This document shows, in pieces, positions 4,376 through 41,782 of a stretch of 58,701 bases of DNA. The notes under the pieces are model-generated. The model worked only from the letters and a program-made list of their open reading frames with translations. It ran no database searches and was not told the DNA's origin. Position 1 is the first letter of the stretch; every line of letters starts with the position of its first letter. The translations under genes were made by a program, and so were the position numbers. Origin of the DNA: Chiloscyllium plagiosum (taxonomy: Eukaryota); contig NC_057719.1 of the NCBI RefSeq assembly GCF_004010195.1, positions 32,775,948-32,834,648 of the forward strand. Direction: 5' to 3'.

Positions 4376-4530
4376 ATAAATTCTGTGCCCTATGATCCTG
4401 CCCTACTAGCTACCTGATGAAGGAGCAGTGCTCTGAAAGCTTGTACGTCCAAATAAACCATTTGGATTATAACCTGGGGCTGTCTGATTTTTAACTTTGC
4501 TTACCCTAGTCCAACACTAGCACTTTCAAA
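4376..4530 (+). mobile_element. Penelope-like terminal repeat (family B) nested in CR1
   Basis: tacctgatgaaggagcagtgctctgaaagcttgta...aataaacc...ttggattataacctgg; homologous to copies at 12617, 15880 and 27098. Confidence 0.75.
4411..4445 (+). ncRNA. Minimal hammerhead ribozyme motif (family B)
   Basis: UAC-CUGAUGA-A-GGAGC-AGU-GCUCU-GAAA-GC-UU-GUA; stem I UAC/GUA, 5-bp stem II. Confidence 0.65.
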
Positions 4531-5446
4531 CGATAATCAATCCTTGCCTCTCCAAATGCATGGAAATCCCATCTCTGAGAATTCCGTCCAACAACTTACT
4601 CATCACTGAAGTTCGGTTCACATGTCATTACAGCCTTCTTTAAATAAAAGCACAACATTAGCCACCCTCCATTCCTTCAGCACCTCAACTGGGGCTGTAG
4701 ATCATATAAGTATCTCTGCTAGGGGCCCCACAAATTCTTCCTTAACTTCCCACAATGTTCTGGGATACATTTGATCAGGTCCCTCTGATTTATGCACCTT
4801 CACATTTTTAGGACCTCCAGCACTTCCTCTTCTGACACGTGGACTGTTGTCAAGACATTAATATTTACTTCCCCAAGTTCCCTAGCCTCTATTTCTTTCT
4901 CCACATTAAAAACTGGCATGGAGTATGAGTTTAACATGTCTCCCATCACCTGTGGTTCCACCCATAAACAAGCTCATTGATCTTTAAAGGGCCCTATGCC
5001 CTTGCTCTTAATCTACTTGTAGAATCTCTTTGGATTATCTTTAACCTATCCACCAAGGCTATCTCAAATTTACTTTTTGCCCTCCTGATTTCCCTTTTAA
5101 GAAAATGCCCCTATCCCTCATACTCTTCAAGAAATTCATTTGATTTGAGTTTTTTTATTCCTTATATATGACTTCGAATTATCCTTGACCAGAGCTTCAA
5201 TATATTTATTCATCTGTTGTTCCATATTCTTACCAGCCTTACCCTTAACTTTAACTGGAACATAATTCCTCTGAACGCTTGTTATCTCACTTTTGGAAAG
5301 CATCTCGCTTGCCAGTCATCCCTTTTACCTGCGAACAGACTACTCAGATCAACTTTTGAAAGTTCCTGTCTCATACTGTCAAAATTTGCCTCAATCCCAT
5401 TTAGAACTTTAACTTTTATACAAGGTCCATCCTTTTCCATAACCAT

Positions 5447-7040
5447 GGGGTCAGTGATCATAATTCTGCTAGTTTTAAGATAGTTTTGGAAAACGATAGA
5501 CCTGATCTCAAGGTTAAAGTTTAAACTGGAGTGAGGTAAATTTTGACAGTATTAGGCAATAACTTTCAAAAGTTGATTGGGAAAGACTATTCGCAGGTAA
5601 AGGGATGGTTGGAAAGTGGGAGGCCTCCAAAAATGAGATAATGAGAGTCCAGAGGAAGTATGCTCCTGTTAGGTTAAAGGGCAAGACTGGTAGGTGTAGG
5701 CAATGCTATGACTAGAAATTGAGGCTCTGGTCAAGAAAAGGAATATGGCAGAGATAGCCTTGGTGGATAAGATTAAGGATAATCCAAAGAGATTCTACAA
5801 ATATATTCAGAGCAAAAGAACAACTAGGGAGAGATATACTTAAGGAGGAAATCAGGAAGGCAGAAAGGAGACATGAGATAGCTTTGGCAAATAGGGTTAA
5901 GGAGAATGCAAAGAGATTCTGCAACGACATTAAGGGCAAAAGAGTAACCAGAGAGAGAACAGGGCCCTTAAAGATTAACAAGGTGATCTCTGTGTGGAAC
6001 TGCAGGAGATGGAGGAGATACTAAATGAGCATTTCACATCAACATTTACTGTGAAGAAGGATATGGAAGCTAGAGAACTTGAAGAAATAAATAGTGATGT
6101 CTGGAAAAAGATCCGTATTACAGAGGAGGAAGTGTTGGACATCTTAAAATGGATAAAAGTGGATAAATTCCTGAGACCTGATCACGTGTATCCTAGAGCT
6201 TTGTGGGAAGCTGGGAAAGTGATTGCTTGGCTCTTTACTAAGATATTTGTTTCATTGGTAGCCGCTGGTAAGGTATCGGAAGACTGGAGGGTGGCTAATA
6301 TAGACCCATTATTAAAGAGAGACGGTAAGGGTCCTAGGGAACAGAGCAGGGTGCAGGCTCATAGCTCATTGAAGGGGGAGATGCAGGTAGATAGGGTAGT
6401 GAAGAAGCATTTGGTACACTTGCCTTTATTGATCAGTGCATTGAGTATTGGAGTTGGGATGTCAAGTTGTGCTGTACAGGATATTAGTTAGGGCACCATA
6501 GGAAAACTGCAAGTAATCTTAGTCTCCCTGTTATAGAAAAGATTTTGTTAAACTTGAAAGGGTCCAGAAAAGATTTACCAGGATATTGTCAGGGTTAAAG
6601 GGTTTGGGTTATCGGGAGAGGCTGAATAGCCTGGGGCTTTTTCCCCTGGAGTGTCAGAGGCTGAGGAGTGACCTTATAAAGGTCTATAAAATTGCGAGCA
6701 GCATGGATAGGTGAATAGCCAAAGTCTTTTTCCCAGGGTAGAGGAGTCCAAAACTACAGGACATAGTTTAAGTTGAGATTTAAAAGTGATTTAAGGGTAA
6801 AGTTTTTCATGCAGAGAATGGCGCATATATGGAATGAGCTGCCAGAGTAAGTGGTGGAGGCTGATACAACTGCAACATTTAAAAGGCATCTGCATGGGTA
6901 CATGAATAGCAAGGATTTAGAGGGATATGGGCCAAATGCAGGCAAATGACACAAGCCTTATTTAGGATAACTGGTCAGCTTGGATAAGTTGGACTGAAGT
7001 GTTTGTTTCCGTGCTGTACATTTCTATGAGTCTATGGCTC
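5447..7040 (+). mobile_element. CR1-type LINE, 5'-truncated and internally deleted, with 3' end
   Basis: ORF 5994-6491 EEEVLDILKWIKVDKFLRPDHVYPRALWEA...EDWRVANI; 3' end gtttccgtgctgtacatttctatgagtctatg. Confidence 0.85.
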
Positions 7041-7043
7041 TGT

Positions 7044-7790
7044 GTTCCTTCTCTAGTGGATACACCTACATATTGATAAAGAAAATTTTCTTGAACATAT
7101 TTAACAAATTCCTCAACATCCAAGCGCTTAACACCATTGTAGCCCCAGTTTATGTTTGGAAAGTTAAAATCCCCTAATGTTACAACTATATTATTCTGAC
7201 ATACATCTGAGATCTTTCCACACATTTTTTCCTCAATTTCCCTCTTACTATTGGGGGGCCTATAGTACAATCCCTTCAAGGTGATCATCCCCTCCTTATT
7301 TCTGACTTCCACCCATATAGCTTCACTGGATGATCCCTTAGAAATATCCCCTCTAAGTACAGCAGTAGTGTTTGCCTTTATCAAAAATGCCACTCCCCCT
7401 CCTCTCTTGCCTCACTTTCTGTGCTTCCTAAAGCAACTACACCCCAGAACATTGAACTGCCAGTCCTGTCCATTTCTCAGCCAAGTTTCAATAATAGCTA
7501 TCGTGTCCTAGCCCCATGATCCTATACATTCCCTGAGTTCATCTTTATTACCTGTAAGATGTCTTGCTTTGAAATAAATGCATTTTAATTCTTCAGAGTT
7601 ATTTTGTTCACTGACTTACTTTTACCTGCTTTTTCTAACCAACATGCTCTTTTTAAATTCAGAACCATCCTCATTGCTATTCTCACAACTAATGAGGGTT
7701 CTCCCATCCCTATCTCTACTAGTTTAAAGGCTCCCAAATAGCACTAACAAATCTCCAGGATGTTGGTCCCCTCCAGTTCTGATGAAACCA
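7044..7790 (-). mobile_element. CR1-type LINE APE endonuclease region
   Basis: ORF 6962-7393 EAIWVEVRNKEG..YYRPPNS...LGDFNFPNINW. Confidence 0.85.
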
Positions 7791-8658
7791 TTTTCCTCTA
7801 TTCCGTTCATCACTCCCTCCTCTGTCCTGTTTCTTAATCTCTTTCTCCCACTTTCCAAGCCTCTGTCCCTCATTTCATCGCTTTATGCATTCTTTCTCAA
7901 ATCTCATCTACCTGCCTCGACTCCATCCCTCCACATTTCACCATCTGTGGATCATTCCTTCTGATCCCAAAGACTTCCAATTCTTTTCGTCAAGCCTGTC
8001 GATCACTAATTCTCCTCCTTTGGTTCACTATGGTCTTCCCTTCTCTACTCCCTCCCCACTCACTCTCTGCTTCCTCAATTCACTCTCTCACCAGCCTACC
8101 TGTACCATTCCACTCTCACATTACCCTCCATCCTACTCATATCCCAATCCTTGCAGTGCTGCTTCAGCCTTGAATCAATTACTAGCCCTCCTTGAACTGA
8201 AGACATCACTTTCCTAACTCTCTCGGCCCAAACCCCAGAGAGACTGACAAATTATACATTATACAATAATATAAAATGTTGCTTTCCAAATGTTGCATAC
8301 AAAATACTTTAAAAAGACAATTTAGATCAATAAACAGATATATTTAGCAATTGTTCTTTTCATTTACTGATACTACCACACTTCAAGGTAATATTCCTGT
8401 GTCCAAAATGTATTGTAAGTGAATACTTCCTATTGGATTCAATGTAAATAGTGCAAGAATACACATTATTATCCTGCTACTTTTAATATTATCTATCCTT
8501 TAATTTATGTCAATTGTTTCCTGTTAGCCATATTATTTTGATCACTTTTCTTCTGCATTCTATTGATCCTTTACCAAAGAGGTAAATGTTAAACTGAAGA
8601 TGCTGTTAAACATGTTTTAATTCAAACAGATGCACAAATTTCTTTTGCTCACACATAC

Positions 8659-8817
8659 CTATGTGCTTTCCATACATGTTATAGTAGAAGCTGACGCAGT
8701 AAGCACTGTTAATGGAACCATATGGATTTTTAGGCAGTGTGCTGAAAATAGGACTTAGGAGTCGAGCCTTTTCACCTTCTGTTCGAGGGCGGGAAGTCTC
8801 TATATACATGTAGAAAC
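8659..8817 (-). CDS. MDGA2: Internal coding exon (159 bp, phase 1/1) of MAM domain-containing GPI-anchored protein 2, MAM domain segment
   Basis: Translates to (G)[52 protein letters not shown](G). From recall this closely matches vertebrate MDGA2 ([34 protein letters not shown]...YCFSFFYHMYGQHIG); the PKNPYG insert distinguishes it from MDGA1. Minus-strand acceptor tttacag|G (AG at 8819-8818) and donor G|gtatgt (GT at 8658-8657); length is divisible by 3. Confidence 0.93.
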
Positions 8818-8992
8818 CTGTAAACATCAAAAAAAGTAATTTAGCTAAATTTGTACAACAAACATTCAAGTGTCTCCAATTCACTTCAAATTATATTTAC
8901 ATGAAACTATATAAAGTGTCAATCAGAACAACACTTGAAATTAAACATGGAACATATAACAGTACAGCAGAAAAACAGGTCCTTTGGCCCTG

Positions 8993-9090
8993 TATTCCTG
9001 ATGAAGGGCTTTTGCCCGAAACGTCGATTTTACTTACCTTGGATGCTGCCTGAACTGCTGTGCTTTTCCAGCACCTCTCTAATCTTGACC
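8993..9090 (+). mobile_element. Penelope-like terminal repeat (family A), single arm
   Basis: ttcctgatgaagggcttttgcccgaaacgtcgatt...ggatgctgcctgaactgctgtgcttttccagca. Confidence 0.8.
8996..9027 (+). ncRNA. Minimal hammerhead ribozyme motif (family A), intact core
   Basis: UC-CUGAUGA-A-GGGC-UUUU-GCCC-GAAA-CG-UC-GA; predicted cleavage after 9025. Confidence 0.72.
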
Positions 9091-10230
9091 CCACCATGTC
9101 TGTGCCAACCATGAGGCCATTCTAAACTAATCCGAATTGCCTGGATATGGTGCTTATCACTCCAGTCTTTACCTTATTCATGTGTCTGTCTAAATGCTTC
9201 TTAAACATTGATATATGTTTCTAACACCTCCTATTTCTAACACCTCCTCAGGCAGCACATTCCATGCACTTACCACACTATGTGTAAAGACATTGCCTCA
9301 TGTATCTCTTTTAACTTTTCCCCTTTCACCTTAAACCGAAGCCCCCTACAATTTGCCATTTCCACCCTGGGAAAAAGACTCCAACTATCCACACTATCCA
9401 TGGTTCTCATCAATTTTATATACTATTATCAGGTCACTCCCTCAGTCTTCAATGCTCAAACAAAAATAATCCAAGTTTATTCAACTTCTCCTTATCATTA
9501 ATACACTCCAAAGCAGACAACATCCTGGTAAAACCCTTTTGCACCCTCTTCAAAGTTTCCACATGCTTTCTATAGTGTGTTAACCAGAACTGCACTCTCC
9601 AAATATGGTCTAACTAAAGTTTTATATAGCTGCAACATGACTTGCCAACTTTCACACTCAGTGCCCTGACTGACGAAGGTAAGCATGCCACACACTTTCT
9701 TTACAACCATATCCATTTGTATGATCACTTTTAGGGAGATATGGGCTTGCACCCAAGATCTCTCTGCATACCAATGCTCATGAGAGTACTGCCTTTTACT
9801 GTATACTTTTCACTTGCTTTCAACCTCCCAAAATGCAGCATCTAACACTTGCCTGGATTAAACTCCATTTGCCATTTCCCCACCCAACTTTCCAACTGAT
9901 CTCTGTTATATGGTATTCTTTGACAATCTTCCTCATTATCCACAACTCCACCATTTTTTGTGTCATCTGCAAATTACTAAGAAGACCACCTACATTACAA
10001 ACAACAAAGGTCCCAGCACTGATCGTTGTGGAACATCTCTGGTCACAGACTGCTAGTGAGAAAAACACCTCTCCACAACAACCCACTTGCAGTCACAGAA
10101 ACACTCATTTGTGAATATAGAGTCCCTTATCATTATCACTAAACTACACTTTGACCCTCCCTACTGTACAACAGTGCCAATTGCGGTACCATCAGCTAAT
10201 TGATTCCTTCTCAAGGAAGTTGGTCTCTTA

Positions 10231-10445
10231 GAGCTAATGTCACTGGATTAGTAATCCAGGCTCGTGCTCTGGGGACATAAATTTACATCTCTCCAAAGCA
10301 GTTGGTAGAATATAAATTCAATTCATACATCTGAAATTGAAAGCTAGCCTAATGATGACCATGAATCATAAAAGCTCATCTGATAAATTAACATCCTGTA
10401 GGAAAGGAAACCCAGCCCACATTTGACTCTATACCCACAGCATGG
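10231..10445 (+). mobile_element. Degenerate SINE, same family as 2660-2985
   Basis: aatgtcactggattagtaatccagg...ctaatgatgaccat...gactctatacccacagca. Confidence 0.55.
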
Positions 10446-11269
10446 GCAAAGAGAAGCATTGCATGTGGCAAGGATTCAGAATATATTCTGGGTGGGGTGG
10501 TGAGGACCTTCACTGCTCATCATCAAGAGCACCTTGGTAACAGCACCACTTGCTATGATTCTGTAATTTTCTACATATGTCAGTCCACATAACATATACT
10601 ATGATGGCTGGGTTCTGTTGAGTCAGACACCATGAAATTTATTTACAAAATGCACTGATGACAAGACTATAATATCACAGATGTAGATGCAAAGTCAGTT
10701 TTAATGTCCATAACTGACTACATGCACAGAGTGATTGAAGGCAAGGCAGTTTTTTTTTTAATATTAGAACATCACACATTGTGATGGCATGTGACTATCT
10801 TAAATGTATAGGCCTGTCTGGCCTAGAATCTGTGCCATCGAAAAATATCCTCCGTTTTTCCTTTAAAGAATGGGACCCTTGTTCTGATAAAACAGGTACA
10901 AAGATTACACCCAGATATATTGTCTCTGTAAATTCAGATAACACTTTGCGGACATTCAGCACAATCAGATTTAGTTCTTATACAGTTGTTATGACTTGTT
11001 AGTGATGCTTCAATACTCTGTGCTTTGCTGTCATCACAGATGGATGTGTGTCATTTATCATAGGTGTATGGTTGTTGTCTGGCATGATATCTTCAGTATC
11101 ATCCTGTGTGATGGATAGTTAGTGATGTGCAGTCCAGATGTATCATCTATTTCTTTACAGGACTGACTACTGTCATTGTAGGTGTACTGGACTCAACAAT
11201 GTTGTACTTTGCCATGGTGATGCTTTGACATGGCTGAAGTTGGGATTGCTGCCTGTTTGCTCATTGATC

Positions 11270-11400
11270 AAAGATCATTACTGGAATGTTTATTGTTTGT
11301 AATATATGTATATGTGATTTGGATGAAAATGTAGGTGGTCAGATTAGTAAGTTTGCAGATGACACAAAAATTAGTGGAGTTGTGGGTCCTGGGGATCTGA
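11270..11400 (+). mobile_element. Short CR1 RT fragment
   Basis: [25 protein letters not shown]. Confidence 0.75.
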
Positions 11401-11496
11401 AACAAACAAAAACCAAAATTGCTGAAGAAACTCAGCAGGTCTGGCAACTTCTTTCCAACAATTGGGTAGTAAGAATACAAGAGGGATCGAAAAATA

Positions 11497-11690
11497 CCAA
11501 AAGAACTGCAGATGCTGGGAATTAGAAACAAAGATAGAAATTGCTGGAAAAGCTCAACAGGTCTGGCAGCATCTGTGCAGACAAATCTTCCATTCTGAAG
11601 AAGGGTGACAGGACCTGAAACTTTAATTCTGATCTCTCTCCAAAGATGCTGCCAGACCTGCTGAACTTTTCTAGCAATTTCTGCTTTTGT
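11497..11690. mobile_element. Older palindromic PLE-terminal (MER6-like) element
   Basis: Arms caggtctggcagcatct / agatgctgccagacctg around a degenerate core ctgaagaagggtgacaggacctgaaac. Confidence 0.65.
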
Positions 11691-11894
11691 ACTATTGGAT
11701 CAATCTTCCAACATGCGAGTTGCCAGTGAGGGTTTACTATAGCCTAAAGGAGTATCATAGAGATCTAACAAAGCTTTTTAAAAATCTTGGCAAATCACTT
11801 TATGTTTAATGATCATGGATTTTTCAGTATGAATGGTGTATTCTGCAAGACTACTTGTTTAGGAAATGAGGTAATGTGTTGAACATCACATTTA

Positions 11895-12475
11895 GAATCA
11901 TTGAGTCATAGAGCTGTACAGCACAGAAGCAGAACCTTTAGTCTAACTCATCCGTGGCGATTAGATATCCTATAAATACGTAGTCCCATTTGCCAGCATT
12001 TGGCCCATATTCCTCTAAACCCGTTCTACTCATGTACGCATCCAAATGCCTTTTAAATGTTACAATTGTGCCAGTCTCCACCACTTCCTCTGGCAGCTCA
12101 TTCTATACATGCAGTACCCTCTGCGTGAAAAAGTTACCCCTCAGGTCCCTTTTAAATCTTTTCCCTTTCACCTTTAATCTATGCCCTCTACTTTTGGATG
12201 CCCCTACCCTGCAAAAAAGAACTTGACGATTCACCCTATGCATGCCCCTCATAATTTTAGAAACCTCTTTAACGTCATCCCCATAAGGCCTCTGATGTTC
12301 TAGGAAAAAAAAAATCCCAGTCTATTCAGCTTCTCTGTTTAATTCAGACCCTCCAATCCTGGCAACATCTTTGTAAATCTTTTCTGAACACTTTCAAGTT
12401 CAACAACATCTTTCCTATTGCAGGGAGACCAGAATTGAATGCAATATTCTAAAAGTGGCCTCACCAATGTTTTTT
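11895..12475 (-). mobile_element. CR1-type LINE 3' end
   Basis: Reverse-complement tail gagtcatagagctgtacagcacagaa followed by typical CR1 3' sequence. Confidence 0.8.
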
Positions 12476-12616
12476 GCAGAAATCTTGGAAGAATGGATTA
12501 ATGTACAGTTGACCATTGTGAGAAATTATTTGTCAAGGTACCACTGAGCAAACTGAATATGGTGGTCAATGTTCCAATACATGAATGCACTCATGTCTTA
12601 CATGATCTTATGTGAT

Positions 12617-12731
12617 GTCTTACAATCTTATACTCCACAACCACCTGATAAAGGAGCAGCGCTCCGAAAGCTAGTACTTCCAAATATAAACCTGTTGAAC
12701 TATAACCTGGTGTTGTGAGATTTTTAACTTG
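12617..12731 (+). mobile_element. Penelope-like terminal repeat (family B)
   Basis: ccacctgataaaggagcagcgctccgaaagctagtac...aaacctgttgaactataacctggtgttgtgagatttttaac; hammerhead G8 is mutated. Confidence 0.75.
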
Positions 12732-12829
12732 ATGCATTTATGGTATTTTTGAAGTATTGCACACAAGAAAACTTGGCAATATAGTCAGCCGCCAGATCTT
12801 AATGAAATTCTGGCCATAGATAATACCAG

Positions 12830-13048
12830 CGCTGAAAATGTGTTGCTGGAAAAGCACAGCAGGTCAGGCAGCATCCAGGGAACAGGAGAATCGACGTTTC
12901 GGGCATAAGCCCTTCTTCAGGAATGAGGAAGGGCTTATGCCCGAAACGTCGATTCTCCTGTTCCCTGGATGCTGCCTGACCTGCTGCGCTTTTCCAGCAA
13001 CACATTTTCAGCTCTGATCTCCAGCATCTGCAGACCTCACTTTCTCCT
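12830..13048. mobile_element. Penelope-like terminal repeat (family A), near-perfect head-to-head palindrome
   Basis: ~85-bp arms almost identical; candidate TSD catagataataccag (12815-12829) / catggagaataccag (13049-13063), 13/15 match. Confidence 0.88.
12891..12922 (-). ncRNA. Minimal hammerhead ribozyme motif (family A), intact core, sense to the MDGA2 pre-mRNA
   Basis: Reverse complement reads UC-CUGAAGA-A-GGGC-UUAU-GCCC-GAAA-CG-UC-GA. Confidence 0.72.
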
Positions 13049-13071
13049 CATGGAGAATACCAGTCAGGCAT

Positions 13072-13200
13072 AAGTGAGGACTGCAGATGCTGGAGATAAG
13101 AGTCTAGATTAGAATGGCACTGGAAAAGCACAGCAGGTCAGGCAGCATCCGAGGAGCAGGAAAATGATGATTCGGGTAAAAGCCCTTCATCAGGAATGAA
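13072..13200 (-). mobile_element. Penelope-like terminal repeat (family A), single arm
   Basis: aagtgaggactgcagatgctggag...cagcaggtcaggcagcatccgaggagcagg...gcccttcatcaggaat. Confidence 0.8.
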
Positions 13201-14454: not shown

Positions 14455-14619
14455 AGAAAACAACAAAGTTCCTCCTTTTGTGTTTGCCCTGTTGCACTAA
14501 CATTGCTATTTCAATGATTAGCAGCTTCATCACTTTGATTGTTGGTTATAGCTGCAACAACTCTCCAAAGGAGCAATGCACCCAGTGCCACACTCCTGCC
14601 TTGCCCTTGTAGCCGGGCT

Positions 14620-15879: not shown

Positions 15880-16059
15880 GATTTGGAGATGCTGGTGTTG
15901 TACTGGGGTGTACAAAGTTAAAAATCACACAACACCATGTTACAGTCCAACAGGTTTAATTGGAAGTACAAGCTTTCAGTGCGCCAAAGAAGTGGCACTC
16001 CGAAAGCTAGTGCTTCCCATTAAACCTGTTGGACTGTAACCTGGTGTTGTGTGATTTTT
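15880..16059. mobile_element. Penelope-like terminal repeat (family B), head-to-head palindrome
   Basis: aaaaatcacacaacaccatgttacagtccaacaggtttaat / attaaacctgttggactgtaacctggtgttgtgtgattttt. Confidence 0.82.
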
Positions 16060-16526
16060 CGCTTTTCTTTTAGGTTTCCTTGCTTGTCAAATGGAACTGG
16101 AGAGTGTCTCTTGGCCCAACAAAGAAACTTTGGGCCTACCCTACCCAGAGTAGCCCATATACACTCCAAACCATGATCCCCAATTGAACCTTGCCCTACC
16201 TGCCCAACCACTTCATTTGGTCCAAGGGACCATTATTCCAGGACCAGACTGGAAATAATGTTGATTGGACAGGAGGCCAAGCATTGAGATAGCAACAAAA
16301 TCAGGGAGTTAAAATCTGTTGAGGTCTCTTGTGGCATGTAATCCGAACACTCTTCATGGCCCAGACATCCACTGAACCCACTCACTTCATAAAAAGAGAG
16401 CCAGGATCCCTTAGAAGGTCCAAGTACAGATAAGAGGCTGAGAAGGCCCTCTCAAGCAAATGCTGATATTGTCCCAACATTTACCATGTGCCCAGGTAAT
16501 TGGTGCATGAATGGTATTCTGCCACT

Positions 16527-17379: not shown

Positions 17380-18805
17380 ACGATTTGGATCCAAACTTAG
17401 GAGGCATGGTTAGTAAGTTTGTGGATGACACAAAATTGGTGATATAATCAACAGTGAGGAAGACTTTCTAAAATTATAAAGGGATCTTGATCAATTGGGT
17501 CAATGGGCTGAAGAGTGACTGATGGAGTTTAATTTGGATAAGTGCATTTTGGTAAAACAAAATCACCATGGTAAAACAAACAAGGGCAGGACTTCGAGTC
17601 ATAGAGTTGTACAGCATGGAAACAGACCCTTCGGTCCAACTTGTTCATGCTGACCAGTTATCCTAAATAAATCTAGTCCCATTTGCCGGAATTTGGCGCA
17701 TATTCTTCTAAACCCTTCCTGTTCATATACCCATTCAGATGCCTTTTAAATGTTGTAATTGTACCAGCCGCCACCTCTTCCTCTGGCAGCTAATGGCAAA
17801 TTTGCACCAGCTTCTACATGAAAACGTTGCCCCTTAGGTCCCTTTTAAATATTTCCCCTCTCATCTCAAACCTATGCCCTTTACTTTTGGACTCCCCAAC
17901 CCTGAGAAAAAGACCTTGCAATTCAGCCTATCCATGCCCCTCATGATTTATAAACTTCTATAACATCACCCCTCGGCCTCTGACACTGCAGGATAGCCAC
18001 AGCCTATTCAGCCTCTCCCTTTAGCTCAAACCCTCCAACCCTGGCAACTTCCTTGTAAATCTTTTCTGAACCCTTCCAAGTTATGGTAGGGCCCTGGGTA
18101 ATACTATTGTACAAAGAGATCTAGGGGTTCAGATGCATAGGACTTTGGGTCACAGGTAGACAGGATATTTAAGAACGCATTTAGCATGCTTGTCTTCATT
18201 GCTCAGACCATTGAGTACAGGAGTTGGAATGTTGTACTGGGTTTGAACAGGACATTGATGAGGCCACTCTTGGAGTACTGGGTACAGTTCTGGATGCCCT
18301 GCTATAGGAAGGATATTATTAAATTGGAAAGGGTTCAGAAATGTTTTCCAAGGATGTTACTAGGACTGGAGGGTTTGAGTTATAACGAGAGTCTGGATAG
18401 GCTGGGACATTTCTCACTGCAGCGTAGGGGTGATCTTATAAAAGTTTATAAAATCATGAGGTACATAGGTAAGTTGAATAATAAAGGTATCTTCCTTAGA
18501 ATAGAGGAGTCTAAAGCTAAGGAGCATATTTTTCAGGGAAGAGGAGAAAGATTTAAAAGGGAGTTGAGGGGCAACCTTTTCATACAGAGAGGGTTTGTGG
18601 GTGGAATGAACTGCCAGAGGAAGTGGATGATGCAGGTACAGTTACATTTAAAAGACATTTGGACAAGTACATGAATAGGAAAGGCTTAGAGACATATAGG
18701 CCAAACACAGGAAAGTGGGACTGGTTTAGGTTGGGAAACTTGGTTGTCATGGATGAGTTGGACCAATGGGCCTGTTTCCATGCTGTATGCTTCTGTGACT
18801 CTATT
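17380..18805 (+). mobile_element. CR1-type LINE RT/3' region interrupted by a nested antisense CR1
   Basis: agtaagtttgtggatgacacaaaaattgg; ORF 18186-18674 RPLLEYWVQFWMP.YRKDIIKLERVQK. Confidence 0.85.
17597..18080 (-). mobile_element. Nested CR1 3' end
   Basis: Begins with the reverse tail gagtcatagagttgtacagcatggaaacag. Confidence 0.82.
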
Positions 18806-19856
18806 AATAGTCCCTATGAAGTTGGAAAACATCCATGATGCAGTAGAAGAACACTCTCAGAACTGATACTGCCAATACAAGCCTTTCACCTCAAGGAATG
18901 GCTGCAGCTATTCAGCTTTATTCTTTGATGGCTTCCCAGCCTGCCACTGTGCTCTCACCTGACTCACCCTGGTGAGTCCTACATAGCTCAGGGAGCTTTT
19001 AAAGCCAAAATGCTGAGTCAAATTGTGAGTTGAATCATGGGGGGGGGGGAGGGGAGGGGAGTGTTTATATACTTTGATCACTTATGAGTTCCATGGTGAT
19101 TTCTTTTTTCACTTGCCTGCAAATCCACACAGGTTAAAATTGGTAAGATATCGGGATTCCTTTGTGATCTAGACCACACAATCAGAAGCATTTGCCATGC
19201 TCCTTAATTTTACCAGTTCACCTGACCAAACTTGTTCAAAGGATTTGTCCAGACCGAGATCTAATTTGCATCTTGCTCTCTTATCTGCTCTCATGCCGTC
19301 TCCAAGCTTAATTTATCCATGGGATCCACCTCCTAATACCTTAAATCTATTCTGACTGAACTGCTGATTACTCATTTCCTTTCCTGTGTCCATGTTAATC
19401 AATATTGTTAATGGTTCTCTCAATTCAAGTGCTGTCCCATTCTCCTTTGAAACTGCCATCATTACGTCTCTCCTGAAAAAAGTCCCTCAGCCTCGCCACC
19501 AATACAAATTACCAGTCACTCTTGAACTACCCTTACCCCTCCAAAGTCTTTGGATGTATTGTCTCTTCCCAAATCCATTCCAATTTTCCCAGTAGTTTTC
19601 TTCCCCGTCTCAGGACCAAAACAGTTCTTAGCAAAGGCACAGTTGGAGTCCTATACAAATGTAATACATGTCAACGTTTCCTCGTTGTCCATTTTGACCT
19701 GTCTTCAGTCTTTGACATGGTTAAGCATACTGTCCTCTTAATGTCTCTCTGCTCCCACCTAATTCATTCACAACCATCCAATCATAGCCAGGGAATCAAT
19801 TGCAATTTTTCCCTTCCTGCTTTCATACCGTGTTACCTAGTGTCCTTCAAGGATCA

Positions 19857-21361
19857 GAAGAAAGTGAGGACTGCAGATGCTGGAGATCAGAGCTGAAAAA
19901 TGTGTTGCTGGAAAAGCGCAGCAGGTCAGGCAGCATCCAAGGAGCAGGAGAATCGACATTTCGGGTATAAGCCCTTCTTCAGGAATGAGGAAGGTGTGCC
20001 AAGCAGGCTAAGATAAAAGGTAGCGAGGATGGACTTGGGGGAGGGGCGTCGGAAATGTGATAGGTGGAAAGAGGTCAAGGTGAGGGTGATAGGTCAGACG
20101 GGGGTGGGGGCGGAGAGGTCGGGANNNNNNNNNNNNNNNNNNNNNNNNNNNNNNNNNNNNNNNNNNNNNNNNNNNNNNNNNNNNNNNNNNNNNNNNNNNN
20201 NNNNNNNNNNNNNNNNNNNNNNNNNNNNNNNNNNNNNNNNNNNNNNNNNNNNNNNNNNNNNNNNNNNNNNNNNNNNNNNNNNNNNNNNNNNNNNNNNNNN
20301 NNNNNNNNNNNNNNNNNNNNNNNNNNNNNNNNNNNNNNNNNNNNNNNNNNNNNNNNNNNNNNNNNNNNNNNNNNNNNNNNNNNNNNNNNNNNNNNNNNNN
20401 NNNNNNNNNNNNNNNNNNNNNNNNNNNNNNNNNNNNNNNNNNNNNNNNNNNNNNNNNNNNNNNNNNNNNNNNNNNNNNNNNNNNNNNNNNNNNNNNNNNN
20501 NNNNNNNNNNNNNNNNNNNNNNNNNNNNNNNNNNNNNNNNNNNNNNNNNNNNNNNNNNNNNNNNNNNNNNNNNNNNNNNNNNNNNNNNNNNNNNNNNNNN
20601 NNNNNNNNNNNNNNNNNNNNNNNNNNNNNNNNNNNNNNNNNNNNNNNNNNNNNNNNNNNNNNNNNNNNNNNNNNNNGTATTGGAATTGGTCCTCCTGGGA
20701 GCAGATGCGTCGGAGGTGAAGGAATTGGGAATATGGGATGGCGTTTTTACAGGGGGAAGGGTGTGAGGAGGTGTAATCTAGGTAGCTGTGGGAGTCGGTC
20801 AGTTTATAGTAAATGTCCGGGTTGAGTCGGTCGCCCGAGATAGAAATGGAGAGGTCGAGGAAGGGGAGGGAGGAGTCTGAGACGGTCCAGGTAAATTTGA
20901 GGTTGGGGTGGAAGGTGTTAGTAAAGTGGATGAACTGTTCAACCTCCTCATGGGAGCACGAGGGTAGCACCGATAAAGTCATCGATGTAGCGGAGGAAAA
21001 GGTGGGGGGTGTTGTCAGTGTAGCTGCGGAAGATGGACTGTTCCACATATCTGACGAAGAGGCAGGCATAGCTGGGGCCCATGTGGGTGTCCATGGCTAC
21101 TCCTTTGGTTTGGAGGAAGTGGGAGGATTGGAAAGAGTAGTTGTTCACTCCCTCTCCGGCCTATCACCCTCACCTTAACCTCCTTCCACCTATCGCATTC
21201 CCAACGCCCCTCCCCCAAGTCCCTCCTCCTTACCTTTTATCTTAGCCTGCTTGGCACACCTTCCTCATTCCTGAAGAAGGGCTTATGCCTGAAACATCAA
21301 TTCTCCTGCTCCTTGGATGCTGCCTGACCCGCTGCGCTTTTCCAGCAACATGTTTTTCAGC
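19857..21361 (-). mobile_element. Penelope-like retroelement (family A), 5'-truncated, RT fragment with inverted terminal repeats
   Basis: FLQTKGVAMDTHMGPSYACLF...FLRYIDD and FHPNLKFTWTVSDSSLPFLDLSI...DIYYKLTDSHSYLDYTSSHP..CKNAIPYSQFLHLRRICS are PLE RT motifs. Inverted termini at 19857-20124 and 21147-21361; 14-bp TSD tccttcaaggatca at 19843-19856 and 21362-21375. Confidence 0.93.
20125..20676. other. Assembly gap (552 N)
   Basis: Run of N inside the PLE. Confidence 0.99.
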
Positions 21362-23019
21362 TCCTTCAAGGATCACACAGACACAGATAATACCCGACTC
21401 TATCTCATCACCACCTCTGTCCTTGGCTGTTGATTTATCCAGCATCGAGCAAGAGAGGAACAGAGATTTCCTTCATTTAAATATTGGGAAAGCTGAAGCC
21501 TCTGTTCCCTACTCCAGTCTCTTTTCTCTAACTACTGATGCTGTCTGTTTCCCTGGAAACTACTTTCGTGACTAAGTAACATCTTTCGATGGCCACATCC
21601 CTCCATTTATCTGTAACCTCCTCCAGGCACACAATGCTCTGAAATATTTATGTTCATCGAGTTCTGGCCTCTTGAGCATCCCCAAATTTATTTGCTCCAC
21701 AATTGGTCACTGTTCATTTAGCTACCCAAACTCTGGAATTCACTCTCTATCTCTCAATTTGTTTGTATATCTATATATGTCACTTTCTACACTACTCAAC
21801 CTTACTTCTTGAGTCAAACTTTTAGTCATCCGACTGAATATCTGACCTTGTGATGTTTTAGTATGTAAATAGTACTGCGTAATTGGAAGTTCTGACTGTT
21901 GCTGTTTAACTGCCAGCTCACACCTAAACACCCCCCCCCCACTTAGAAGTTAAAATCCTGTCCAATGAATGTCGTTGTTTTACCATTTACTGCTGCATTA
22001 TTCGATGCTCTGAGAGCAATCTGAAGCTAAAGCGTCTTCTGACTCCACTTGAAAAGAGAAAGAGTGAAGTCTTTTTTCTCTTCAGGCACTGTTAATATGC
22101 TTAATTATCTGGTTGCTGTTAGGCTGCAGAAGAAGGTACTGATTATAGTCATTTGGTAGCTGCCTTTTGGTTTTGACATATAAAACGATAAGGCAGATTA
22201 AGCTAGTCTCGATTTTAAGACTCATCAACAATTCAAGTCTGAGCTGTCAACTTTGAAAAATTCACTTTCAAACCCAGTCTTCAGTGAGAAAGCACTCGAG
22301 AGAAAGAACATGATGAATAGCCATGCAAGTATGTTCTGAGGTACAAAGATTAGCAATGATAAAGTACAAACAGGACAGAGTCAGCGGAAATGAACATGGG
22401 AGAGCAGAGAGAGCCGACGTAATGTATTTTCAAGTTTTAGTTTGGATTGAGACTTTACTGATTGTCTATAATAATTTGCTTTTGATAGCAACTACTATTA
22501 GTGTTTCAGTGTCCCAATACATAAGGTAAAATCAAAAATTCATGTGATCAGAAAGTGATATATGAAGTACAGTGGTAGCATGCATAAAAAAGATGAAATA
22601 TTCCCATCAAATATGAATTATTATTGTAGGCTAAAAAGTATTCTTCAACAGAGGAACCATTAACTGTATGACAAAGGATAATTGGACTCAAAATATCTTC
22701 TGTCTCCAGACCTACTGAGTTTCTCCACCATTTCCTATTTCTGAGCCAACCATTGTAATCAACACCAATTTATAAAGTATGTTTGGATCAACATACTGGA
22801 ATCTTCATACAGGTAGTGGGAATATGAAGCATTCCTATTCATTAATGATGTAATTTCAGGAATTCTTGTTATGAAAGCTTTGGTTGTGTGAAGGACTAAA
22901 ACAGAGATTTCCATGCGACATTACACGTTACCATGTTTCCATTATTCCAGGTAACAGTTCTTTCAAACATAGAAGGAGATGTTGTCTCTCCATTGAAGTA
23001 AAAAGCAGTAGCTAAAGCC

Positions 23020-23285
23020 ACAAGGGAAGCAGTGATGTAATAGTAACATCACTAGGCGAGTAATTCAGAGCTTAGTTTAATATTCATATCCCACCATAGC
23101 ACATGGACACATTTGAATTCAAAAAGAATTAATGTTGAATTAAAATCTAGCCCAATGTAAACACTGTTGTAAAACCCCATATAGTTCGCTGATGCCCTTT
23201 AGTGAAGGACCCCAGACCCACAGCCATGTGTTTGACTCTTAATGTCAATTAGGGAAATAAATGCTGGTCTAGCCAGTGATGCTTC
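23020..23285 (+). mobile_element. SINE, same family as 2660-2985
   Basis: ccagacccacagccatgtgtttgactcttaa...aaataaatgctggtctagccagtgatgc. Confidence 0.6.
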
Positions 23286-23844
23286 ACTGAGTTCTGAAAA
23301 GGTCTCTACGTCCATACTTTACAATCAATGATTATTCTACAACTGAAGTATACCCATTTCTTATAAATAAGTTTACTTTACATATTTTGTACGTGCTGAG
23401 TGGCATTTTTTCCCCCAGTTGTTCTTGTGAGCTTGGTGGTTGGAGGTTTGGAGACCTGTTTGTCTACATGCACTTTTAACGAGGTTTTACATCCTTGGAA
23501 GTGAAGAGAGGTGGTTTTGTAGTTTAGTGCAGTAAAAGAAGTGGTGAAAAAAATTCTGCTGTTGCCTAGACATTGGGATCCAAAGACGCATAGAGACACA
23601 CACCCAGGAGGGAGGGAGTCCGTCAGTCAGTCACAGTATGGGTATGCCAGATACTATCCAGTAAGAAATCCTACACGTAAGTTGGAAATGGAATTTGGGA
23701 AAAATAGTAGCTGAAGAAAAGAGTTATTGAATGAATGAGCAGAAATTCACCAGAAGGAAACCAAATACAGCTGTGCCAGCCAAAGCAAAAGCTTTCTTAT
23801 GGAGTTAGTCGTAAACCTTTGCTGGATTTTGATGTTTATAAATA

Positions 23845-25528
23845 TACAAGGAGGGGACATGAAAGGTCCTTAGTTGGTAGGATTAGGGAAAACCCTAAGG
23901 CTTTCTATAGGTATGTCAGGAATAAAAGAATGACTAGGGTAGGAATAGGTCCAGTCAAGGATAATAGTGGGAAGTTGCGTGTGGAGGCTGAAGAGATTGG
24001 GGAGACACTGAATGAATACTTTTCGTCAGTATTCATTCAGGAACAGGACATTATTGTCAATGTGAATACTGAGTCACAATTAAGTAGAATGGATGGCTTT
24101 GAGGTATGTAGAGAAGAGGTTGGAAATCCTGGAAAGGGTGAAAATAGATAAGTCCCCTGAGCCTGATGGCATTTATCCTAGGATTCTCTGGGAAGCAAGG
24201 GAGGAGATTGCAGAGCCATTGGCCTTAATTTTTATGTCCTCGTTGTCTACAGGAGTAGTGCCAGAAGATTGGAGGCGAGCAAATGTGGTTCCCTTGTTCA
24301 AGAAGGGGAGTAGGGATAACCCTAGTAACTATAGGCCGGTGAGTCTCACTTCTGTTGTGGGCAAAATCTTAAGAGAGAATTGTAAGGGATAGGATTTATG
24401 AACATCTGGATAGGAATAATGTGATCAAGGATAGTCAGCATGGTTTTGTGAAGGGCAGGTCGTGCCTCACAAACCTTATTGAATTCTTTGAAAAGGTGAC
24501 GAAGGAGGTTGATGAGGGCAAAGCGGTAGATGTGGTATATATGGATTTTAGTAAGGCGTTTGATAAGGTTCCCCATGGTAGGCTACTGCAGAAAATACGG
24601 AGATATGGCATTGAGGATGAGTTGGAGGTTTGGATTAGGAATTGGCTGGATGGAAGAAGACAGAGGGTAGTAGTTGATGGCAAAGTTTCTTCATGGAGTG
24701 CCGTCACTAGCGGTGTTCCGCAAGGATCTGTTTTGGGACCATTGCTGTTTGTCATTTTTATAAATGACATGGAAGAGGGGTTAGAAGGTTGGGTGAGCAA
24801 GTTTGCGGATGATACGAAAGTCGGAGGAGTTGTTGACAGTGAGGAAGCATGTGGCAGGTTACAGAAGGATATAGAGAAGCTGCAGAGCTGGGCAGAAAGG
24901 TGGCAAATGGAATACAATGTAGCTAAGTGTGAGGTGATTCACTTTGGGAAGAATAACAAAAAGATGGGGTACGGGGCTAATGGACGGATACTTGGTAGAC
25001 ATCTGGAGTATTGCGTGCAGTTTTGGTCGCCATACTTTAGGAAGGATGTGGAGGCACTGGAATGGGTTCAGAGGAGGTTTACCAGGATGTTGCCTGGTAT
25101 GGTAGAAAGGTCGTATGAGGAAAGGCTGAGGCACTTGTGGTTGTTTTCATTGGAGAAAAGAAGGTTTAGGGGTGACTTGATAGAGGTGTATAAGATGATT
25201 AGGGGTTTAGATAGGTTCGACAGTGAGAATCTTTTTCCACGTATGGAGTCAGCTATTACAAGGGGGCATAGCTTTAAATTAAGGGGGGGGGGGGGTAGGT
25301 ATAGCACAGATGTTCGGGGTAGGTTCTTTACTCAGCGAGTCGTGAGTTCGTGGAATGCCCTGCCAGTAGCAGTGGTGGACTCTCCCTCATTATGGGCATT
25401 TAAGTGGGCATTGGATAGGCATATGGAGGATAGTGGGCTAGTGTAGGTAAGGTGGGCTTGGATCGGCGCAACATCGAGGGCCGAAGGGCCTGTACTGCGC
25501 TGTATTCTTCTATGTTCTATGTTCTATA
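23845..25528 (+). mobile_element. Young CR1-type LINE, 5'-truncated, (TTCTATG)n tail
   Basis: ORF 24421-25446 has [38 protein letters not shown] and KFADDTK; tail ttctatgttctatgttctat. Confidence 0.95.
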
Positions 25529-27097
25529 TTGCTGGGATAAAATAGATAGACTGAATTTGAATTCTTTTCTGCCATTTGTAGTGAAGTCTTTCCGAACTTT
25601 CAACTTATGTAACATAAATTATGCTCTTTTTGTTTATGAAACACTTTTTGTTTTAAAAGTATACCGTAAGACTCTCGGAATTTATTCATAATTGGCCTCC
25701 ATGGTTGAAAAGAAGTCACAAAGTTTATCAAGTCAGGTGTCACTTTGGGAATTGACTTTTCCAGTATTAGCATCAGCTGGGATTATAAAAGATTCAAAAA
25801 TCAATACAATCAGACTCACATGTTCAACATATTGTACACAACTGATTAAATGCTCGTGATCAGTGAAGCAACCATTCTTCTCTACAATGGCGCTCAACAT
25901 TGAGTAACGTGACTAACTTCAAAATTGATACACAGGAAATGTAGTGGAGAGCCTCGCCCATGCTCCCTAACTCCCCTCTCAGCCAGATAATGTCTGGAAA
26001 TATTAGAGACCATGTCTTTCTGACATAATGATTTGTTTATATCTCAAAAGATGATAGTTGCAGCTTTCATTCAGAAGAAAGATACAATGAGGTGAATTTA
26101 TTACTGCCTCATTTTGACAAAATGAATTGAAATAGGAGTTGTACCTAAGAGATTCAATACTCCCCTGCACTTCTTTTATAGTGGATAGAATATTGCAGTA
26201 TTGTTTTTTCATAGATAATATGCTGTTATAAAAACACTGCTACACGTTTGAGAAGTAATTGTGTTTCAGGAAGTCTGCACAGGGGCAGATCTGTGATTTG
26301 AATCATACAGCATAATTGTTGCTAACTACAAAAAAATTCTATGATATTTAATATTGACTACTAAAACAGTTGAATGCATGTCAGAAGACGTAACCAAACT
26401 GTAGAGTGCTCTGTTCTGACCATGTGTTGAGTGTTGTGTCTTGTTCTGCTGGTCGAACAAGGCTGCTTTCATCTATAGAGACAATGCAAAGAATGAGACT
26501 GAACTTCAGATCACAGTGTTCACCCAAAATGGTTTGGGTCAGGCAGCAATTTATAATTTAAAAATCTGAAACAGGAGTACAATCTATTCAAACCTGCATC
26601 ATTTTTGATTTCAATGGAGACGGGAGCAACTAAATGCTCTTCGGCTGCTGGTCAGTTGTTGAACACTGTTATATGGCTGTTTGCCTTTATTCTAACAGAA
26701 TTTCTGCTTGAGTTTTCTAGTCCTCCAGAGACTAGCAGATAAACAACGCTATAGAAGGACTGGATACATCAGGTAAATGAAATGCTGTCATTTGGAAAGT
26801 TATGCCCAAAAATATATAGACTCTATCAGGGCCTTCAAAAGAGAATTAGAAAATTATCTGAAGAGAAAATAATTTGCGAGACTACAGAGAAAAGGTTGTG
26901 GATTATGATCATGGGGGCTGTTATTGTAGAAAGACGATACATACATAACAGGCAAAATGGCTGCCTCCAGTTGCTGTAACCCTTCTATATTTCCAAATTA
27001 TTGCATGGACCTGTCTATAAATCATATCACTACATTAACTGCAATAGATTCCCAATCCAACTTCAATCCACCAGTGATTGCTAACACTGCATCTTTG

Positions 27098-27210
27098 TTA
27101 TAAATTCTATGTCTTACGACCTTATATCTGATGAAGGAGCAACGCTCCGAAAGCTAGTCCTTTTGAATAAACCCATTGGACTATAACCTGGTGTTGTGTG
27201 ATTTTTAATG
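27098..27210 (+). mobile_element. Penelope-like terminal repeat (family B)
   Basis: 9-bp candidate TSD gcatctttg at 27089-27097 and 27211-27219. Confidence 0.8.
27126..27158 (+). ncRNA. Minimal hammerhead ribozyme motif (family B), intact core
   Basis: AU-CUGAUGA-A-GGAGC-AAC-GCUCC-GAAA-GC-UA-GU; predicted cleavage after 27156. Confidence 0.7.
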
Positions 27211-28119
27211 GCATCTTTGGATCTTGTCAAATTTTGACTTGATGCCTTAATCTCTGGCTCTCCCTTGACCACCCTATCTCTCCCATTCCAGGCTCTCCCT
27301 TATGCTCAGGGATCTTTGAGAGCATTCTGCCCACCTCCCTGTCCCCATGAAGTGATAAACCTGAACCCCTCAGCCAAGCTCTACCCTCTTTCCCCCTACC
27401 CATTCCCACATTGTCACTACTGCTACCCCTCCCAATGTCACCCCATGAAGATCCCTTTTTGAGGCCTGGCATATCCAACTAATTTGGGTTAAAGTCAGAA
27501 ATGCTGCTAAAGTGAAAGCAAGTAGCCCAATTAACAGTGTTCAACAACTGACCAACAGCCTAAGAGTAATTGGTCGCTCATGCAGCCTCTGTTAAAATTA
27601 GAAATTAATATTATCATAGCCTGAATTGCTTCCTTGTAAATAAGAACATTAGAACATAATACATAGAAGCAGAGTGGACTAGACAGTTCCTCGGGCCTGC
27701 TTGTTCAAAGGATATGTCTGTGGCTCAACTTTTAATGATTCTCATTTTCTTGACCCATTTTGGTTGATTCCCTTAGTATCCAAAAGTCAATTCTTATTAG
27801 TCTTCAGAATGGTTATTAACTAACATCCACAATCTTCTGGGCTAGCGGATCCCTAAGATTCATAACCTGAATGAAGAAATTTTCCTCAAAATGGCAGACC
27901 CCTAATCCTGAGACAAGGATCCTGAGTTTTCACTCTCTCTGTTATTTTATTACATAGATCGCAGGAAGGCAGTGTTATATTTAACAGTGCTGGATGATAC
28001 CCCTGGATTTCGGGATATTCCTGTATAAAGGTCCTCACTTTACCATCAATAGACACAAAGCATGGAATCAATGTTCTGTGTCATCAATTTGTCAGCCATG
28101 TGTTGTATTGCAGCTGTGT

Positions 28120-28243
28120 GTGAGTTGTTTAGCTCAGTTGGCTGGACAACTGGTTTCTGATGCAGAAATGATGCAGAATTCTCATTACCAGCTGAAGTCA
28201 TCTTCAAGGTTACACCTTCAAAACCGTTGCCTAAGTGTGGTTA
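28120..28243 (+). mobile_element. Degenerate tRNA-derived SINE head
   Basis: A-box-like tagctcagttgg followed by ctggtttctgatgcaga. Confidence 0.4.
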
Positions 28244-28244
28244 C

Positions 28245-28638
28245 TGCTGAAAATGTGTTGCAGGTCAGGCAGCATCCAAGGAGCAGGAGAATCAACGTTT
28301 CGGGCATGAGCCCTTCTTCAGGATTAAGGAAAGTGTGCCAAGCAGGCTAAGATAAAAGATAGGGAGGAGGGATTTGGGGAGGGGTGTTGGAAATGCGATA
28401 GGTCAGAGTAGATGACCTGGGGTGTGCAGTGAGAGAGGGACTCACTGAAATCCTTGTAGAGGGAGGAACAGAGCTTCTTCAAAGAAGGCATCCTTGTAAG
28501 AGGATTCGCAGTAGGTTAAAATCAACTAGGAGAAAGTGAGGAGTGCAGATGCTGGAGATCAGAGCTGAAAATGTGTGGCTGGAAAAGCGCAGCAGGTCAG
28601 GTAGCATCCAAGGAGCAGGAGAATCGACGTTTCGGGCA
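28245..28638 (-). mobile_element. Internally deleted PLE (family A) with two direct terminal repeats
   Basis: Two same-orientation terminal repeats (28245-28403, 28528-28638) flank a ~125-bp segment whose minus strand reads MPSLKKLCSSLYKDFSESLSHCTPQVI. Confidence 0.75.
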
Positions 28639-29471
28639 TTGGTTGAGTGGCAGGAAACAGAGAGTTGGAATCATAAATACTCAAATTGGCAGGATGTGAC
28701 TAACGAGTGTCCAGCACAGATCTGTGTTGGGGGCCCAGTTGTTCATAATATTCCTTACTGACTTAGATAATGGCACAAACTTGGGCAGCATTAGAGACAG
28801 TGTTGCCAACAACATAAAATTACAATAGTATATTGATAGATTGGGTGAATGGGCAAAGCTGTGACAGATGGATTGTAATATAGGCAAGTGTGAGGTTGTC
28901 CATTTCAAACCAAAAAAAGGAGACATCAGGGTGTTTTACAGTGGATGTCCAACAAGATTTGGGGGTTCAGGTACACAGCAATCAGGTGTACTACAATCAG
29001 GTGCAGAAAATAGTGAAGAAAGCCAATAGAATGCTGGCTTTCATATCCAAAGGGCTTGAGTAGATGTAGAGATTGTGTTGCAGTTATTCAAAACTCGAGT
29101 TAAACCCCACTTAAAGTAATGAGAGCAGATCTGGACACCACACTTTAGGAAGGATGTTTTGACCCTGGAGAGAGTTCAATGCAGGTTTACAAGGATGATA
29201 CTTGGACTTCAGGTGTTCAGTTATGAGGAGAGATTAGACAAAATAGGCCTATATCGTCTAGAATGTAGAAGGTTAAGGAGTGATCTAATTGAGGTTTTCA
29301 GGATGTTACCAGGGAATGACTGGAAGATAAGGATAAACTATTTCCACTGGTTGAAGGTTCTAGAACCGGGGTCACAGTCTAAAAGTTAAGGCCAGGTCAA
29401 AGTTTGTAAGAAGATTTGTAGCTCGGGTGCTCGTTGTTGTAGTTCTGTTCGCCAAGCTGGGAATTTGTGTT

Positions 29472-29511
29472 GCAGATGTTTCGCCCCCTGTCTAGGTGAC
29501 ATCCTCAGTGC
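29472..29511 (-). ncRNA. Minimal hammerhead ribozyme motif (family C), mirror copy
   Basis: Exact reverse complement of 29934-29973. Confidence 0.68.
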
Positions 29512-29933
29512 TTGGGACCCTCCTGTGAAGCACTTCTGTGATGTTTCCTCCGGCATTTATAGTGGTTTGTACCTGCCGCTTCCGGTTGTCAGTTCCAGCT
29601 GACCGCTGCAGTGGTTGGTATATTGGGTCCAGGTCGATGTGTTTGTTGATAGAATCTGTGGATGAGTGCCATGTCTCTAGGAATTCCCTGGCTGTTCTCT
29701 GTTTGGGTTGTCCTATAATAGTAGTATTATAGGAGAAGCCAAACAGAGAACAGCCAGGGAATTCCTAGAGGCATGGCACTCATCCACAGATTCTATCAAC
29801 AAACACATCGACCTGGACCCAATATACCAACCACTGCAGCGGACAGCTGGAACTGACAACCGGAAGCGGCAGGTACAAATCACTATAAATGCCGGAGGAA
29901 ACATCACAGAAGCGCTTCACAGGAGGCTCCCAA

Positions 29934-29973
29934 GCACTGAGGATGTCACCTAGACAGGGGGCGAAACATCTGC
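29934..29973 (+). ncRNA. Minimal hammerhead ribozyme motif (family C)
   Basis: GCA-CUGAGGA-U-GUCACCU-AGAC-AGGGGGC-GAAA-CA-UC-UGC; stem I GCA/UGC. Confidence 0.68.
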
Positions 29974-41770: not shown

Positions 41771-41782
41771 GTCAGAGAGTCA

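Follow-up and report, generated by a model that had tools for sequence, protein, structure and literature searches.

The stretch of the Chiloscyllium plagiosum genome considered here (58,701 nt of contig NC_057719.1; hereafter the window) raises the question of what hammerhead ribozyme motifs do for the Penelope-like elements (PLEs) in which they reside. The original prediction, made from the letters of the window alone, stated that three distinct PLE families, which we call A, B and C, each carry a minimal type I hammerhead built for pairing as a dimer. Our analysis bears this out and places the motif in the terminal repeat of each family. We consider it probable that these hammerheads cut slowly, as dimers and with the aid of protein, in long tandem transcripts, and that the truncated and fold-back copies of the window are inert.

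Hammerhead Motifs in the Window and in the Genome

Our strict descriptor comprised CUGANGA, one extra base, G10.1, a stem II of at least three pairs and GAAA-NN-UH. The window gave 11 matches to it, compared with a mean of 0.0125 (maximum 1) in 400 dinucleotide shuffles, and a palindromic tetramer was found in six of the 11 and in none of the 400 shuffles. Across the 3.56-Gb genome, the pattern CTGANGAHGN{6,18}CGAAASSTH was matched 165,437 times versus 199 times for the reversed control. Patterns specific for families A and B, with a perfect stem II, yielded 93,494 and 18,117 matches, and a C-type pattern with the first three stem II pairs fixed yielded 18,613; all of their controls gave 0. 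A chance origin of the motifs is ruled out by the window shuffles together with the reversed control.

Each of the 13 positions listed in the original prediction holds a motif or its decayed form, and ten of them pass the strict descriptor, the failures being 12644 (G8 to A), 13170 (GAAA/UH decayed) and 53650 (G12 to A). The predicted cut positions (H17) at 9025, 27156 and 29970 proved correct, and so did the positions of the motifs, with the qualification that 12891, 13170, 19954, 28292, 29472 and 53650 denote minus-strand copies given near their left edge. The eleventh strict match (11595, plus strand), absent from that list, belongs to a fourth family, D. An Rfam scan of the window returned 25 matches at E up to 10, none of them a hammerhead; the best were microRNA models on fold-back hairpins, all under the gathering score.

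Three Distinct Families of Host Elements

Genome searches returned thousands of candidates for each of the three families. Elsewhere in the genome, each family is represented by full tandem elements, in which two motifs of the same sense flank a reverse transcriptase (RT) open reading frame (ORF) at a distance of 2.5-3.4 kb. Within family C, element L115 has motifs at 3505 and 6008, inside 534-nt direct repeats around the RT ORF, and L117 is likewise tandem. Family B is exemplified by L132 (motifs at 2835 and 6273) and L133, whose motifs are 3.3-3.4 kb apart and enclose an RT ORF that includes a cysteine linker. In the family A element L141, the motifs at 6285 and 3548 lie 2.7 kb apart, and the linker is visible in L145.

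We regard the families as distinct because their RTs are only about 30% identical (31% between B and C, 30% between B and A, with an E of 1e-40 for the A-B alignment). The Pfam model RVT_1 scored above the cut-off in three of the five proteins scanned, below it in one, and gave nothing for a 94-aa piece of family A. The RT motif reads DKG in families B and C and DKR in the single A copy read there. An endonuclease of the GIY-YIG type is recognised by motif alone, as VVYKIPCKDC...YIGQT in C and IVYLTRCRQGC...YIGET in B; the Pfam scan and a search against solved structures gave no GIY-YIG match, and the latter search, run with the family C protein, found RT maturases only, at a best E of 0.021. 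In the C-terminal part of family A, the linker and the last portion of the endonuclease domain were seen. Between RT and endonuclease, the translations of A and B contain a CX2-5CxxC linker, which those of C lack. By the linker criterion of PMC8557442, family C is predicted to be of the Penelope/Poseidon type and families A and B of the Neptune or Nematis type. Partial tandems, an inverted 5'-truncated partner and an optional tail of 30-40 bp, all features of endonuclease-containing (EN+) PLEs, were observed as well.

Design of the Motif across Families

An extra base past A9 and a near-absent stem III are indeed present in families A, B and C. Considered unusual in the original prediction, this design turned out to equal the published metazoan minimal hammerhead consensus (PMC4209133). 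The extra base is A in 137 of 139 family A copies, 79 of 83 B copies and all 21 D copies, and U in 70 of 72 C-type copies; the G10.1-C11.1 pair is seen in the aligned family motifs. Positions 15.2-16.2 are CG in 99/139 A copies and GC in 75/83 B copies, which gives the palindromic tetramer expected for these two families. Its restriction to them did not hold, since family C has ACGU too. The 72 C-type copies read CG 52 times, CA 13, TG 6 and TA once, and a hand count over the first 100 listed genome matches of family C gave CG 77, TG 13, CA 9 and GA 1. A family C without the palindrome is thereby ruled out, CG being dominant in the C-type copies, and the CA of the window copy can be attributed to CpG decay because CG prevails across C-type copies and the rest is mostly TG or CA. 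The non-CG remainder in both A and C consists mostly of CpG-decay products, and D is mostly decayed (CG in 3/21).

The claim that stem II sequences differ and nevertheless pair stands across families, with a correction of detail for family C, whose stem II is composed of 3 bp, an A.G mismatch and another 3 bp; the GGGGGC seen in the window is a variant form of GGGGAC, the common sequence. Pairing of helices I and II is seen across the families. In stem I, families A and B have C-G as pair 2.1-1.1, family D has U-A and family C has A-U, and between family C and a further family, E, pair 2.3-1.3 changes from G-C to U-A and the stem II mismatch is closed. Thus, the covariation that was to be sought in genomic copies exists between families and is weak inside them. 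Such a check is ill-suited as a refutation, since genomic copies, once inserted, undergo decay. Among 63 in-register family A copies out of 70 picked blind, N7 and loop II vary by up to 43-51%, non-CpG core positions by 3.3% on average and CpG sites by 20% on average, and 19 of the 63 are strictly intact. Taken together, the pattern of variability and covariation in these sequences fits selection that would act on master elements, followed by decay of the copies.

Two further families deserve a comment. Family D (stem II GGGUC/GACCC, stem I AGUU/AACU; 12 copies clustered) is mostly old and CpG-decayed, and its downstream sequence resembles that of family A. Family E (L238, minus strand near 1552 in reverse coordinates; L237; L233; L137) is related to C and has a fully paired 6-bp stem II, with AUG at A9-U-G10.1. 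The tetramer ACGU is common to A, C, D and E, making cross-family pairing possible in principle; B, with AGCU, would not pair with them.

Ends of Copies and Transcripts

The 3' ends of genomic copies are bimodal, lying at about +93 and +127 from C3 in family A, +85 and +120 in B, and +75 and +113 in C. Inserted copies thus keep the motif whole and end some 40-100 nt past the cut site. Because all of these ends lie past the cut, the template was either whole at the downstream motif or religated.

The 5' ends were collected from a 659-kb sample (600 kb picked blind plus the window), in which copies were found via a downstream anchor alone. No pile-up was seen at the cut, within 3 nt of which lay 9/102 ends in family A and 1/39 in B. 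A hot spot emerged instead just upstream of the core: 39 of 70 family A ends (5.1% per nt versus 0.65-1.4% elsewhere) and 20 of 29 family B ends (6.3% versus 0-1.7%) fall within the 10 nt preceding it. A leave-one-out comparison lowered this excess and still kept it: element sequence upstream of -4 was missing from 31/58 A and 16/29 B copies, or from 28/54 and 13/26 once fold-back arms were merged. Since 18 of the 31 A copies and 15 of the 16 B copies that start at the motif are joined to an inverted partner, a preference for such junctions could explain much of the hot spot. No extra G marks the start in a way that would point to a cap; one precedes it in only 3/24 A, 1/17 B and 1/7 D copies, in a set that included some copies with upstream element sequence.

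Judging by these sequences, the start at the edge of stem I in families A and B may possibly be a transcription start. The letters upstream of it, TCATTC in A and TCAGTT in D, resemble what we take to be an initiator element. In the Drosophila element Penelope, transcription proceeds from within the pseudo-long terminal repeat (pLTR; PMC2377424). No prior report of a 5'-end hot spot at the edge of a PLE motif was found in a literature search mainly of openly readable text.

A polyA single-cell run (X21) served as the sample of transcripts, and reads from roughly 2% of it were placed on L115. This gave 1,157 reads, mostly in the direction expected of sense RNA, with peak depth across the downstream motif; a second run, X22, gave 0 reads. 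The reads span the cut site with no pile-up of molecule ends, a weak test of cleavage given that the run possibly stems from a related species, that reads come from many copies and that such libraries would miss cyclic-phosphate ends.

These ends bear on the model of Cervera and De la Peña (PMC4209133), in which dimeric self-cleavage, invoked in the original prediction too, would take place at both repeats and release a unit-length RNA that is ligated to a circle and reverse-transcribed past one turn, producing partial tandems. It agrees with the tandem elements carrying two same-sense motifs in all three families, and ligation would restore an intact motif. We nevertheless find it unlikely, as 5' ends show no excess at the cut and the L115 reads no pile-up of ends, weak as this last point is. 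Moreover, core mutations in PAc, a Poseidon element of Anolis carolinensis, do not abolish its insertion in vitro, and neither end of any read falls on its cut site (PMC11167929).

A Start Codon inside the Family C Motif

In L115, A9, the extra U and G10.1 together spell the AUG at which a 549-codon ORF opens; the stop codon of this ORF falls within stem II/loop II of the motif in the downstream repeat. By homology with this full element, the family C copy of the window (plus strand) holds the ORF start as the AUG at 29943-29945 and the ORF stop as the TAG at 29951-29953. As the cut lies 28 nt after the AUG, cleavage would part it from the remainder of the ORF. The ORF of family B begins outside the motif, some 121 nt beyond C3.

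Such overlaps would also suit a motif that is retained as a signal by virtue of its fold or as a promoter-overlapping sequence, or that simply hitch-hikes, its catalysis being incidental. The family C motif overlaps both start and stop codons, about half of the A and B copies start at the 5' boundary of the motif, and Naiad PLEs prosper without canonical hammerheads, for which parasitism has been raised by the authors of PMC8557442. Against this stands the retention of the catalytic bases and the palindromic tetramer across RTs of about 30% identity and across unrelated stems, as well as the core-dependent cleavage of PAc with its C3G/G8C rescue (PMC11167929). Incidental catalysis therefore appears to us quite improbable, even more so than a circular template.

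Proposed Role of the Hammerheads

Returning to slow dimeric cleavage in tandem transcripts, we propose that two motifs would pair through ACGU or AGCU and so build helix III. Lünse et al. reportedly tested dimers directly. Reverse transcription would start downstream of the uncut motif and, on that premise, cleavage would not make the template; it would more likely trim or silence the transcript and, in family C, sever the start codon from the ORF. The expectation that dimeric cleavage processes the RNA of these elements finds only partial support, given copies that extend past the cut, 5' ends that do not cluster there and reads that span it.

Several points weigh against the proposed cleavage. 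Cutting by dimers at these motifs is a prediction from sequence. Stem I is short, at 2-4 bp, and covariation within families is weak (in family B, pair 2.3-1.3 is C-G in 59 copies, C-A in 11 and U-A in 4, n=83). In a nearest-neighbour calculation, the dimer fold was less favourable than the best alternative by 10-17 kcal/mol in four of four cases, a rough estimate for which natural copies were used, three of the four with point changes; we regard this energy model as uninformative because it ignores the non-canonical pairs of the core. Finally, a cut-and-religated circular template would likewise leave an intact motif.

It is tempting to go one step further, although we hold the following only as a tentative and somewhat doubtful possibility. 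For families A and B, the terminal-repeat transcript might begin at the first base of stem I, hammerhead-led RNAs might be major templates (about half of all copies start there) and the ribozyme might work as a switch that removes the cap. As for family C, the cut might sever the start codon, which uses the extra base of the ribozyme. If the edge of stem I were truly the transcription start, the ribozyme would regulate the 5' end of the RNA and not the production of templates. The copy ends can be viewed as a fossil record of templates uncut at the downstream motif and of a sharp start at the motif's 5' edge. The question on which our data bear is the role of PLE hammerheads in vivo, the hot spot and the in-motif start codon being most relevant to it, and a genome with more than 165,000 strict motifs would permit a direct test of their purpose.

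Copies and Other Repeats in the Window

The copies of the window are 5'-truncated tails, frequently arranged as fold-backs with short direct repeats. A family A fold-back insertion (12822..13063) has 93-nt arms that are 97% complementary, and the 8-bp direct repeat at 12822 and 13056 is likely a target-site duplication. The 5'-truncated family A element at 19843..21375, with a 14-bp direct repeat at 19843 and 21362, retains the C-terminal region of the RT, which reads on the minus strand from 21096 down to 20677 and is followed by a stretch of N, a sense hammerhead at 19982(-) and an inverted copy with a hammerhead at 21271(+). In the family C fold-back insertion (29387..30024; 13-bp direct repeat at 29387 and 30012), the 287-nt arms are 96% complementary and contain the end of the endonuclease coding region, and a 34-nt tail is present on one arm only. 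A separate observation concerns the 94-aa family A RT piece (20677-20958, minus strand), which has a 100% identical match 14 Mb off on the same contig (G000:C10:18432662-18432943). With other copies at 96% or less, this is either a recent duplication or an assembly duplicate, and we rank neither above the other.

Family A contributes eight hammerheads to the window. Those at 8994..9029 (+; C3 8998, H17 9025) and 12889..12924 (-; C3 12920, H17 12893) are intact, the former in a short solo tail copy starting a few nt upstream of the core and the latter in an arm of the fold-back insertion; the one at 28290..28325 (-) has an intact core with U as H17 at 28294. The core is retained at 2378..2413 (+), in a fold-back arm, where double CpG decay has turned the tetramer into AUAU. 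Decayed motifs occur at 19951..19986 (-; CG to TG, one stem II mismatch), 21267..21302 (+; C11.1 to U, CG to CA), 13162..13197 (-; in GAAA/UH) and 53648..53683 (-; G12 to A). Family B is found at 4411..4445 (+; C3 4414, G.U closing pair, tetramer AGCU, U as H17 at 4442), at 27125..27159 (+; core and stem II intact, A as H17 at 27156, stem I weakened) and, inactivated at G8 (G to A), at 12642..12676 (+). The family C motifs are at 29934..29973 (+; C3 29937, H17 29970, CG decayed to CA) and, on the opposite fold-back arm, at 29472..29511 (-; C3 29508, H17 29475). A decayed family D motif with a stem II of the GGGUC/GACCC type occupies 11591..11628 (+). More tail fragments of A, B and D, several of them fold-backs truncated within the motif, were noted at 300-430, 15880-16069, 28528-28639, 33448-33531, 47577-47714 and 52949-53028.

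No element of the window has two same-sense motifs able to dimerise in cis. The fold-back pairs are unlikely to cleave because they are 96%-paired hairpins with one motif per strand, and the window copies are likely inert leftovers of past insertions. That individual copies work as ribozymes for a host transcript is hardly credible. In its favour, four of them, though no more (C3 at 8998+, 12920-, 27128+ and 28321-), combine an undamaged core with Watson-Crick pairing of G10.1-C11.1 and the palindrome, and partners that share their tetramer abound across the genome. Against it, helix III is impossible without a partner and most window copies are CpG-decayed or lie inside fold-back hairpins. 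Besides, the window has four strict motifs in its 58.7 kb, a density close to the mean for the genome (about 2.7).

Other repeats share the window with the PLE copies. A long tandem array of 33-bp period (about 80 overlapping 300-nt matches, repetitive open frames) extends over 38033-40900, and another repetitive stretch, this one degenerate and with open frames in both orientations, over 48000-50100. Decayed LINE-type ORFs with endonuclease and RT motifs, presumably CR1-like, are located at 23735-25446 (+) and 41772-45040 (-), with fragments at 5979-7411, 18141-18674 and 54122-54583; a 357-aa open RT frame spans 24373-25446.

Comparison with Known Systems

The closest precedent is the minimal hammerhead of metazoan PLE pLTRs (PMC4209133), which is defined by the lack of helix III and shares with our motifs CUGANGA with a base between 9 and 10.1, the G10.1-C11.1 pair, a palindromic 15.2-16.2 and a short helix I. 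Its supplementary alignment contains CG rows from fugu, Xenopus and lamprey and a GC row from turtle, and mainly single truncated copies and opposite-strand pairs were described, as in our window. Monomers did not cleave and dimers did so at a low level; a review citing Lünse et al. likewise considers dimeric cleavage likely (PMC6765202). The copy number in C. plagiosum is far higher, tens of times the vertebrate counts of 2014 (about 4,000 motifs in coelacanth and 9,000 in Xenopus), bearing in mind that the descriptors differ. Cartilaginous fish are unnamed in the two supplement files of PMC4209133 that were searched, and no shark-specific report of such motifs was found in our literature search, again mainly of openly readable text.

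Similarity to EN+ PLE clades (PMC8557442) extends to DKG, to an RT followed by a C-terminal GIY-YIG domain, to partial tandems, to the inverted 5'-truncated partner and to a 30-40-bp tail at one end; the 5'-end hot spot at the motif edge is a difference, being unmentioned in the consulted part of that work. Non-LTR retrozymes, for which a 2026 preprint sampled one chondrichthyan genome (bioRxiv 10.64898/2026.07.22.740005), also contain type I hammerheads, which derive from PLE pLTRs. However, they are non-coding head-to-tail tandems, whereas our copies are dispersed or fold-back tails of RT-coding PLEs.

Finally, PAc offers the most detailed parallel (PMC11167929). Its hammerhead cleaves only with protein and is dispensable for insertion in vitro, and its tail and two internal sites of RT initiation match the two 3'-end modes past the cut observed here. 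PAc is reported to have its ORF start at stem II, 26 nt before the cut, compared with 28 nt in family C, a likeness drawn from the description of PAc and not from its sequence; family B departs from it, with an ORF start outside the motif. Overall, the design of the motif has been in print since 2014 and the idea of dimers is published as well, and what we add to them are the host examples.

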